A stretch of DNA of 64,000 nucleotides from Escherichia coli (GTDB taxonomy: Bacteria; Pseudomonadota; Gammaproteobacteria; Enterobacterales; Enterobacteriaceae): NCBI RefSeq assembly GCF_044324875.1, contig NZ_CP172185.1. One strand, 5' to 3'. The stretch's first letter is position 1, and the number at the start of each line of letters is the position of its first letter. The position numbers were made by a program. This document shows, piece after piece, positions 12,001-15,000 of the stretch.

Positions 12001-15000
12001 AATGTTGCTCATATCAATATCTCATTACAAAGTGAAAGAGAGGCGTAGCGCCAGCGCAGCCAGCGTCACAAAAAGCACCGGCAGGGTCATGATAATTCCT
12101 GTACGGAAGTAATATCCCCAGCTGATAGTCATATTCTTCTGCGAAAGTACGTGCAGCCAGAGTAGCGTAGCCAGGCTACCAATTGGGGTAATTTTCGGTC
12201 CCAAATCGCAGCCAATCACGTTGGCATAAACCATCGCTTCTTTGATAACGCCAGATGCCGTGCTGCCATCAATGGACAACGCGCCAACCAGTACCGTCGG
12301 CATATTGTTCATAATAGAAGAGAGGAAGGCGGTGAGGAATCCGGTGCCGAGCGTCGCGGCCCACAGGCCGTTTTCCGCCAGCACGTTGAGTACGCCAGAA
12401 AGATATTCCGTTAGTCCGGCATTGCGCAGGCCATAAACCACCAGATACATGCCGAGCGAGAAGATGACAATCTGCCAGGGCGCACCGCGCAGGACTTTAC
12501 CCGTATTAATTGCATGACCGCGTTTAGCGACGGCAAATAATATCAGCGCGCCCACTGCCGCAATGGCGCTTACCGGAATGCCGAGCGGTTCCAGGACGAA
12601 AAATCCCACCAGCAGAAACAGTAAAACAAACCAGCCAGTTTTGAACGTAGCAGGATCTTTAATCGCTTCTGCGGGCGATTTCAGCAGCGCCATGTCGTAG
12701 TTCTGCGGAATATCTTTGCGGAAATAAAGATGCAACATCACCAGCGTGGCAACAATTGCGGCGATATCCACCGGCACCATCACCGATGCGTATTCGCGAA
12801 AGCCGAGGCCAAAGAAATCTGCGGAAACGATATTCACCAGGTTGGAGACAATAAGCGGCAGGCTGGCGGTATCGGCAATGAACCCGGCCGCCATCACAAA
12901 CGCAAGCGTAGTGCCTTTACTGAATCCTAAAGCCAGCAGCATGGCGATGACAATTGGCGTTAAAATCAGCGCCGCGCCATCATTGGCAAACAGAGCTGCA
13001 ACGGCGGCACCGAGCAGGACAATCCAGGTAAACAGCAAGCGACCGCGTCCATTGCCCCAGCGTGAGACGTGCAGCGCCGCCCATTCAAAAAAGCCGGACT
13101 CATCCAGCAGCAGGCTGATGATAATGACGGCAATAAACGCCGCCGTCGCGTTCCAGACGATATTCCACACCACCGGAATATCACCCGGATGAACCACGCC
13201 CGTAACCAACGCCAGTACCGCGCCGAGCGTTGCACTCCAGCCGATGCCTAAACCTTTCGGCTGCCAGATAACCAATACGATGGTCAGGACAAAAATAGCG
13301 CCTGCCAGTAACATAATGCCTCCCGGAAAAACACATATGCAAATCCATATGTGTTTAGCTAAATTTTTTAACTACAAGTGTTCTTACTGTCTACGGAACA
13401 ATTTTGTCTGGCCAGGTTGCGGACAATCACCTGAACCTTTTCCTGTTCGCATCGCCAGGCCTGCTCAATAATTTTCGCTGCCCATGCTGGAATATGCGGC
13501 GATAAGCGGTAATGAACCCACTTACCCTGCTTGCGATCCAGCAATAGCCCACTTTCACGCAGCAATGCCAGGTGGCGGGATATCTTGGGCTGCGACTGAT
13601 CGAGGGCAGTACAGAGATCGCAGACGCATAATTCTCCCAGCTCGCTGAGCAGTAAAACGATGCCCAGACGGGTCTCATCAGCAAGAATTTTGAACAGTTG
13701 GATGGGTAAGGGAAATGACATATTGCGCTCCTGATTGTTGCAGGTAGTGTCTCTCTTCGAAGCGGATAAGTCAAAAACATATATGACTTAACGAATGTGT
13801 AAGCGCAGAAGAAGGTAATAGGTGTGAATTAAGAGTTGGGTATTCATTTGAAAGGAGGTCTGAATCAGGACGTAAAAAAACCGACTTTGCGTCGGTTTTT
13901 TACTTTCCAGCCCTGAGTTGGTGGCTCTGGCTGGAGTGAGAGAGCTCTTATCTAACAGCTCAATACTATTAGCCAGTGGCTAACATTGCAAGAATTAGCG
14001 ATTTCTTCAGCTGGCGGAGGGAGCACTTCGGTATACATGGCAGTGAAAGAGGATTTATATACTTTCACCGGATTATCGCCGTACTAAGCCTTGTCCGAAT
14101 CCGGATGTAAAAAAACCGACTTCGCGTCGGTTTTTTTACTGTTCAGCCCTGAGTTGGTGGCTCTGGCTGGAGTGAGAATGCCATCATCTAACTTTTCCAT
14201 GCTATTACCTTAAAAGAGACATTGCAAGGTTATGCTGGTTATTTAGCCTAATTACACTGTATGATTATCCAGTTAGCTCTGAGGCATTTTCACTCTGGCA
14301 ATGCGCATAAACGCTTTCAAAGTCCTGATCAGTGGTACGGGTGGTGCCGTTAACTGATGCTCTGGCCGGAGTGAGAGAGTTCTTATCTAACAATGAGACA
14401 TGCGCCGTGACAGGCAGTGGATGAGTAAGCGGATGCATTCTCACTCCATCGCATGGAGAAAACGGGTGATTGATAAAGCAATCATCGTTCTTGGGGCGTT
14501 AATTGCGCTACTGGAACTGATCCGCTTCCTGCTTCAGCTTCTGAACTGATAGCGGAAACGTAGCTAAGGGCAAAGAGCACACCACTCTTTGCCCTTTAAC
14601 ATTTAACGCATGGTCACGAACTCTTCTGCCGCCGTCGGGTGAATGGCGACGGTATTGTCGAAGTCTTTTTTGGTCGCCCCCATCTTCAGCGCCACCGCGA
14701 AGCCCTGCAACATTTCATCCATACCAAAACCAATGCCGTGAATACCGACAATCTTCTCTTCTGGCCCAACGCACACCAGCTTCATGCGGCACGGCTGGCG
14801 GTGAGTGGTGACGGCGGTATACATCGCGGTGAAAGAGGATTTATACACTTTCACCTGATCGTCGCCGTACTGCTCGCGCGCCTGCGGTTCCGTTAAACCA
14901 ACAGTCCCAATCGGCGGATGGCTGAAGACCACGGTCGGAATATTGCTGTAATCCAGATGCTCATCCGGCTTGTTATTAAACAGGCGTTCAGAGAGACGGC

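Follow-up and report, generated by a model that had tools for sequence, protein, structure and literature searches.

The dinQ-agrAB toxin–antitoxin locus between arsR and gor in an Escherichia genome: an orthologue of the E. coli K-12 system with its known parts intact

The dinQ-agrAB system of Escherichia coli K-12 was described in two studies (Weel-Sneve et al. 2013, PMC3567139; Kristiansen et al. 2016, PMC5066626), whose experimental basis comprises Northern blots, primer extension, selective 2'-hydroxyl acylation with a readout by primer extension (SHAPE), in vitro translation, and RNase III assays. In K-12, the agr genes have mapped transcription start sites (TSSs) and are constitutively expressed, and the LexA operator of dinQ has a heterology index (HI) of 4.83 (PMC3567139); the same paper places a second operator (HI 13.82) "in close proximity", with the promoter overlapping both operators. 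Of the two small RNAs (sRNAs), agrA leaves the active, +44 form of the dinQ mRNA unrepressed in translation (PMC5066626). Here, we describe the corresponding locus in a 64,000-nt stretch of DNA assigned to E. coli (contig NZ_CP172185.1 of RefSeq assembly GCF_044324875.1), which we call the window and to whose first letter all coordinates refer. The locus itself is already known and well characterized, and all of its parts are intact in this Escherichia lineage.

All of the sequence-testable features that define the K-12 dinQ-agrAB locus are present in the window, and we regard the region as almost certainly the chromosomal dinQ-agrAB type I toxin–antitoxin locus, orthologous to that of K-12. 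The dinQ-agrAB spacer sits between the open reading frames (ORFs) of arsR (13368-13721, minus strand) and gor (14603-15955, minus strand), as an earlier note on this DNA had proposed, with arsB and arsC farther to the left of arsR in the ORF list; based on these ORFs and on the K-12 annotation of the aligned region, the gene order and strands of the arsR-dinQ-gor segment are those of K-12. A BLAST search of the region against 5,426 complete E. coli genomes likewise falls on annotated dinQ, between arsR and gorA. The identification of a known type I toxin/antitoxin arrangement is borne out by two Rfam AgrB matches, an NCBIfam DinQ match, the K-12 synteny, and the K-12 switch elements, all detailed below. 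No second copy of dinQ or of a dinQ-like (dql) gene was found in the 64-kb window. For comparison across the genus, we scanned species-representative genomes with a pattern built on the conserved AgrB positions, which returned seven loci, and added those of K-12, ST131, and RMDEC465; the comparative observations reported here are based on these ten loci.

The 27-codon dinQ frame, said previously to have been missed by the ORF track, is real, but the 49-codon ATG-initiated ORF (14400-14549) in which it is nested in frame had in fact been included in the mechanical ORF list. The encoded peptide, the small, hydrophobic, single-helix toxin, is identical to that of K-12, all three differences in the coding sequence (CDS) being synonymous. 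It passes the NCBIfam equivalog NF041472 (toxin_DinQ) with 54 bits against a cutoff of 30, on contigs that match, a public index gives the gene as PF28061 (DinQ), and a Shine–Dalgarno (SD) sequence, GGAG, is located 7 nt 5' of the GTG start codon.

Two AgrB-family sRNA genes lie opposite dinQ, each equipped with its own promoter and Rho-independent terminator. The arsR-proximal gene matches Rfam RF02891 (AgrB) over the full model (positions 1-84) at 13872-13955 on the minus strand, with 108.1 bits against a gathering score of 40, and the dinQ-proximal gene matches the full model at 14107-14191 on the same strand with 91.9 bits. Because the arsR-proximal unit has the top Rfam score and differs from K-12 agrB by only 1 nt, we take it to be agrB, and the dinQ-proximal unit to be agrA. 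Both adopt the two-hairpin structure of the family with z scores near -5 (minimum free energy (MFE) -30.1 kcal/mol, z = -4.95, for agrB; -29.5 kcal/mol, z = -4.72, for agrA), and the units, each about 114 nt long, stand 235-236 nt apart (repeat families D1 and D4). The agrB promoter is 100% identical to that of K-12 and matches the consensus at 8 of 12 positions; the agrA promoter has the hexamers and spacings found in all other lineages, set among heavily substituted adjacent bases. Both terminator hairpins fold on either strand (z = -3.7 to -6.3), with plus-strand values of -15.1 kcal/mol (z = -3.7) for agrB and -18.3 kcal/mol (z = -6.3) for agrA. The hairpins look bidirectional, as had been claimed, but on the plus strand they precede the repeats rather than ending them, and they close the units only in the sense of the minus-strand sRNAs. 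A continuous minus-strand transcript over 13874..14195 is not to be expected; the sequence instead predicts two separate RNAs of about 85 nt (13957->13872 and 14193->14107), each from its own promoter. The agrB TSS would lie at about 13955-13959, judging from primer extension in K-12 (PMC3567139) and from the 34-36 nt duplex of PMC5066626.

The antisense relationship itself is carried by a 34-nt direct repeat (family D2) that is present in three copies, one in the dinQ leader (14359-14392) and two upstream of it; the upstream copies, noticed earlier as direct repeats of a leader segment of about 30 nt, are 94% (13924-13957; 2 mismatches) and 79% (14160-14193; 7 mismatches) identical to the leader copy. 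A match of at least 26 of 32 nt is expected by chance about 5e-6 times per window, and the 64-kb window, searched on both strands, contains no other segment within 10 mismatches of the 32-nt core. Against the 32-nt dinQ site, agrB of the window forms 30 Watson–Crick pairs and one G·U pair with a single mismatch (A·C), and that of K-12 forms 31 Watson–Crick pairs and no G·U pair, also with one mismatch; the core duplex amounts to -57.0 kcal/mol in both. The difference goes back to position 13945, a C specific to the window: agrB there puts a G opposite dinQ U109, and an A-U pair becomes G·U. The agrA unit forms 25 Watson–Crick and 4 G·U pairs with 3 mismatches both in the window (core duplex -44.0 kcal/mol) and in K-12 (-41.5 kcal/mol). 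We used the core duplex throughout, as the pairing that RNAduplex extends far past 32 nt in the full-length RNAs (-87 kcal/mol) was rejected as overfitting, there being no homology upstream of the repeat. The alignment to K-12 dinQ, agrA, and agrB that had been suggested as a check finds the leader complementarity in place, but complementarity of both units, as originally read, is near-perfect only for agrB. Pairing predicts agrB to be the sole cognate antitoxin of this dinQ, and agrA to be a paralogue with a mismatched core.

The regulatory leader of dinQ is equally well conserved. The published mRNA numbering (PMC5066626) fits the window without insertions or deletions when +1 is set at G14272 (G5, U16-C28, A40, G88-A119, and G184-187 all fit), and the 331-nt transcript differs from that of K-12 at 11 positions. 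All four switch elements, the SD-containing element 4 included, and the agrB site are identical to K-12, and element 3 and the SD element are invariant in the eight lineages that have the dinQ promoter. Folding of the window sequence with ViennaRNA gives 13 pairs between elements 1 and 2 and 6 between elements 3 and 4 in the MFE structure of the +1 transcript, 9 pairs between elements 2 and 3 and none between 3 and 4 in the +44 transcript, and a regained 3:4 hairpin when positions 88-119 are blocked. The published switch, with a 1:2/3:4 inert +1 form and a 2:3 active +44 form, is thus reproduced in silico with the window sequence. Downstream, the terminator hairpin that serves both of the convergent genes, dinQ and gor, folds at -18.6 kcal/mol on the plus strand and -22.4 kcal/mol on the minus strand (z = -5.3 and -6.1), and its stem carries a compensatory A-T/T-A exchange at 14572/14590 relative to K-12.

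A LexA box ahead of dinQ, also noted before, is present as the single occurrence of CTG-N10-CAG (14257-14272) within 13700-14620. It equals the K-12 operator except for a T->C change at flank position 1, and its core is kept in all eight lineages. With 8 occurrences against 5.2 expected, the bare core motif shows no enrichment in the window; what makes the box credible is not motif statistics but that its spacer is AT-rich, that it lies over the -10 and +1, and that it agrees with the K-12 operator. On these grounds we predict a LexA operator overlapping the dinQ promoter. The second, weaker operator is more degenerate in the window than in K-12 (CTGG-N8-CCTA versus CTGG-N8-CCTG).

Several observations weigh against the identification and should be set beside the evidence for it. 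Our consensus scans for promoters and terminators called none of the elements of the locus: the agr promoters reach 8/12 against a threshold of 9/12, the agr hairpins apparently escaped because stem extension absorbs the T-run, and the sole match (minus strand, 14293->14264) is within the chance expectation of 1.3. The DinQ peptide found no match in a local copy of Pfam. The C in place of T at the first base of the LexA box, together with the weaker second operator, could mean that repression differs in strength from that in K-12. Finally, ViennaRNA keeps the SD of the +44 form mostly paired elsewhere (probability of being unpaired 0.07-0.21), and therefore the "open SD" of the active form rests on the K-12 SHAPE data and not on prediction. 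The coordinates of all features are collected in Table 1.

Table 1. Features of the dinQ-agrAB locus in the window, by position.
Feature	Position	Strand	Remarks
agrB antisense RNA gene	13872-13957	minus	5' antisense segment, internal stem-loop, Rho-independent terminator
agrB terminator hairpin, GTAAAAAAACCGAC-TTTGC-GTCGGTTTTTTAC	13872-13903	both	symmetric, with A-run and T-run; terminator-like on either strand
agrB segment complementary to dinQ leader	13924-13957	minus	repeat family D2
agrB promoter	13963-13991	minus	-35 TTGCAA (13986-13991), 17-nt spacer, -10 TAGTAT (13963-13968)
gor-derived fragment between agrB and agrA	14010-14085 (76 nt)	minus	local alignment to gor 14794-14871, score 89
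agrA RNA gene, agrB paralogue	14107-14193	minus	Rfam AgrB match
agrA terminator hairpin	14107-14139	both	14-bp perfect stem, 5-nt loop; inverted repeat I3, 100% complementary
agrA promoter	14199-14227	minus	-35 TTGCAA (14222-14227), 17-nt spacer, -10 TAGCAT (14199-14204), 7-nt discriminator
Weak second LexA-like operator and dinQ -35 region (K-12 counterpart)	14233-14252	+	putative placement, from the text of PMC3567139
Predicted LexA operator, CACTGTATGATTATCCAGTT	14255-14274	+	overlaps dinQ -10 (TATGAT, 14260-14265) and +1 (G14272)
dinQ primary transcript, ~331 nt	14272-14602	+	5' untranslated region (5'UTR) 14272-14465, CDS, terminator; numbering of PMC5066626
Switch element 1 (U16-C28)	14287-14299	+	identical to K-12
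+44 processing site	~14315	+	from K-12 numbering
agrB site (G88-A119)	14359-14390, extendable to 34 nt (14392)	+	identical to K-12; repeat family D2
Switch element 2 (G94-G106)	14365-14377	+	inside agrB site; identical to K-12
Switch element 3 (U167-U178)	14438-14449	+	identical to K-12; invariant in eight lineages
Switch element 4 / SD (A182-G187)	14453-14458	+	includes GGAG 14455-14458; invariant in eight lineages
GTG start (G195)	14466	+	K-12 numbering
dinQ CDS (DinQ-V)	14466-14549	+	GTG start, 27 aa, M/V-IDKAIIVLGALIALLELIRFLLQLLN
Hairpin terminator common to convergent dinQ and gor	14566-14596	both	inverted repeat I6

Other readings of the locus differ in what they take to be its product, its antitoxin, and its present state. 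The 49-codon ORF, or another upstream start, might be thought to give the true product in place of the 27-aa GTG peptide, as the longer frame is open in the window and in all lineages examined and was the original dinQ annotation (PMC3567139). Comparison of the eight lineages makes this extremely improbable: in the 27-codon frame, all five variable codons differ synonymously (5 synonymous, 0 nonsynonymous), while the upstream 22 codons show 4 nonsynonymous changes and 1 synonymous change, the start ATG of the longer ORF is ACG in E. albertii, and its Met12 is Leu in Escherichia sp. E1V33. It is because of this difference between the two parts of the frame that we favor the 27-aa product, whose GTG also has the SD described above; mutagenesis in K-12, moreover, showed the toxic form that is translated to be the GTG product (PMC3567139). 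On the opposite strand, a 59-codon ORF (14265-14444, minus), antisense to the dinQ leader, is annotated as "hypothetical protein" in some genomes, for example RMDEC465 and several others matched in the BLAST search; its interspecies differences are nearly all nonsynonymous, and so we take the ORF to be probably a false call in a region constrained at the RNA level.

The two upstream units might also be redundant antitoxins of this dinQ, since both are AgrB-family RNAs of full length whose promoters and terminators are intact, and agrA can still form its interrupted -44 kcal/mol duplex with the leader. We consider this unlikely, as the seven non-identical positions of the window agrA are concentrated in the core of the site (positions 19-26), and in K-12 an agrA with an equal number of mismatches left the SHAPE reactivity of the SD unchanged and neither inhibited +44 translation nor counteracted toxicity (PMC5066626). 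That the whole locus is a relic, one that has fallen silent or is in decay here as it is in some E. coli clones, would have precedents: about 15% of complete E. coli genomes have a shortened region (<80% of the spacer covered), the ST131 version lacks the dinQ promoter, the LexA box, and an agr promoter and carries the change L15Q in DinQ, and the promoter spacer of the window is itself highly diverged from K-12. For the window we nonetheless hold such decay to be very improbable, given that all functional elements are intact, that the changes in the DinQ reading frame are synonymous only, that promoter hexamers and spacings are kept even within the diverged patch, and that the 881-nt arsR-gor spacer recurs exactly in two independent public draft assemblies (GCA_044160485.1 and GCA_014589615.1). 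An intact dinQ whose 27-aa product would be held in check by agrB remains our reading of the locus. In ST131 (locus L002, 1598-1860), an agr unit and the dinQ leader are joined directly, downstream of the repeat; the sequence points to repeat-mediated loss of both promoters, and the ST131 dinQ, though annotated, is probably dead.

The earlier note considered the arrangement fully retained. This is so for the functional elements, but not for the spacer of about 60 nt that contains the agrA promoter and the dinQ -35 region, which is a strongly divergent allele. Together with the gor-derived fragment between agrB and agrA, this stretch is one of the two places in which the differences from K-12 are concentrated. 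The spacer with the agrA promoter and the dinQ -35 and second operator (14192-14255) has 24 substitutions relative to K-12 in 95 nt, whereas the same spacer in E. albertii, E. whittamii, and other lineages has 4 or fewer; the stretch is 67% identical to K-12, with hexamers and spacings retained. The allele is present in 1 of the 5,426 complete E. coli genomes (RMDEC465), a distribution and degree of divergence that suggest an imported or rapidly replaced segment. An origin from a plasmid or a dql gene was considered for this patch and rejected, no match being found in 72,556 plasmids. Over the wider region, identity of the window to K-12 from arsB to gor is about 95.5%, the spacer is at most 94% and gor at most 98.1% identical to any complete E. 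coli genome, and the scan of species-representative genomes found no representative closer than about 94-95%; the exact Gor protein of the window occurs in 224 blocks of a public assembly collection. The window probably comes from a divergent or cryptic Escherichia lineage.

Comparison across Escherichia also bears on the pairing of agrB with dinQ. The agrB target site is the segment of the dinQ mRNA that varies most between species (7 of 32 sites), and its changes are mirrored in one agr unit per genome, which retains 29-31 Watson–Crick pairs of 32 (28-29 of 32 in E. whittamii) across the eight lineages and RMDEC465. Target site and agr unit thus covary in trans, which argues that the pairing is under selection, in keeping with a type I system. 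The variable core of the target site occurs in at least four types across the genus, each with a matching agr unit in the same genome, and the cognate unit is not always the same one. For example, in "E. coli" E69 (locus L007), the dinQ-proximal unit is cognate (30 Watson–Crick pairs and one G·U of 32), and it is the arsR-proximal unit that has the mismatched core (26 of 32), the reverse of the order in K-12 and in the window. The agrA of the window, in turn, has exactly the sequence of the unit that is cognate in Escherichia sp. E1V33, and it matches an E1V33-type dinQ leader at 31 of 32 positions.

A possible origin of the two units is indicated by the gor-derived fragment that separates them. 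It derives from the interior of gor and has the same orientation, with a 57-nt core that is 89% identical (family D3), and it ends 7 nt short of the start of the agrA unit (14093). The fragment is 77% identical to its K-12 counterpart, and in the window it is more gor-like and is free of the 4-nt deletion of K-12. This is the layout that a tandem duplication of [agr unit-dinQ-gor 3' part] would leave at its junction once one of the dinQ copies had been deleted, and the fragment is probably a scar of the duplication that gave rise to the two agr units. A candidate 3' remnant of the lost dinQ, at 13996-14028, was rejected: 135 of 500 shuffled sequences score as well, and the segment consists mostly of the gor fragment. 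Putting these observations together, we tentatively propose, with rather less than even confidence, that [agr-dinQ-gor 3' part] was duplicated and one dinQ lost, that the core of the target site (mRNA positions 106-113) has since switched among at least four types, that the cognate unit differs by lineage, and that agrA would be an antitoxin of another specificity rather than a degenerate copy. Separately, we note a perfect 14-nt inverted repeat, 14168-14181 / 14435-14448, by which the 5' part of the window agrA RNA, GCAUUCUCACUCCA, equals dinQ mRNA positions 164-177, spanning switch element 3; K-12 agrA shares only 10 nt of this. The likeness may be a by-product of both sequences complementing element 2, or agrA may mimic element 3.

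The mechanism that these features would support has been established in K-12, and its extension to the window follows from sequence identity. LexA bound at 14255-14274 would keep the dinQ promoter repressed until the DNA is damaged. In its primary form, with its start at 14272, the transcript would be translationally inert, with element 1 pairing to element 2 and leaving elements 3 and 4 free to sequester the SD. Loss of the first 44 nt, and with them element 1, would let element 2 pair with element 3 and open the SD, so that the 27-aa inner-membrane peptide DinQ could be made from the GTG at 14466, depolarize the membrane, and lower ATP. The constitutive agrB RNA of about 85 nt (minus strand, ~13957->13872) would pair through its 5' 32-34 nt with the leader at 14359-14392, re-closing the SD hairpin and creating a substrate for RNase III, and thereby turn DinQ off. 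The agrA RNA (~14193->14107), as a paralogue with a mismatched core, would not act as antitoxin for this dinQ allele. Transcription, SOS induction, +44 processing, RNase III cleavage, toxicity, and depolarization are all activities that we extrapolate from the K-12 experiments.

One more Escherichia lineage with an intact, SOS-controlled type I toxin–antitoxin module that is already well studied adds little by itself, but it illustrates that a 27-codon gene and its antisense RNAs can be recognized from bare sequence. The comparison provides independent evolutionary support for the 27-aa frame and for the agrB-dinQ pairing, and it suggests a possible origin and role for the so far unexplained agrA. 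Elsewhere in the window, Rfam reports a shuA/chuA 5'UTR thermoregulator at 3601-3632 (plus strand; 60.1 bits, gathering score 58), a match that indicates a haem-uptake (chu/shu) cluster about 10 kb upstream.

Set against its closest relative, the K-12 dinQ-agrAB locus, the locus of the window has the same DinQ peptide, agrB target site, switch elements 1-4, SD, LexA core, and agr hexamers and spacing, and the same division into a near-perfect agrB and a mismatched agrA. It differs in that agrA carries another set of seven mismatches, as well as in C13945 of agrB, the first base of the LexA box, the promoter spacer, the gor fragment, and the swap in the terminator stem. With tisB/istR-1, the system shares a small membrane toxin under LexA repression, a primary mRNA that is inert until 5' processing activates it (at +42, versus +44 in dinQ), and a divergently encoded, constitutive antisense RNA that pairs to the 5'UTR upstream of the ribosome-binding site and triggers RNase III (PMC5066626). 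The sequences of the two systems are unrelated, however; IstR-1 acts by blocking a ribosome standby site and AgrB by re-closing the SD hairpin, and tisB/istR-1 has no second paralogous sRNA. The dql genes of Enterobacteriaceae chromosomes and plasmids have a related 5'UTR with four switch elements and a related peptide (PMC5066626), but the gene in the window, with its identical peptide and arsR-gor synteny, is a true dinQ orthologue and not a dql paralogue. In our genome scan, the Hafnia paralvei locus (L005, reverse complement, positions 790 and 1017) contains two copies of a related 32-nt segment (…GGAGTGAGACAGCAATC[A/T]GCTAA), 227 nt apart, and is possibly a dql gene with its own antisense RNA. 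In the ibs/sib and zorO/orzO systems, antitoxin RNAs are tandemly duplicated and a variable core sets which toxin mRNA is recognized. The matched types of target site and agr unit across Escherichia resemble this copy-specific recognition and, at the level of sequence, suggest a comparable difference in specificity between agrA and agrB, although here a single toxin gene stands beside two sRNA genes.

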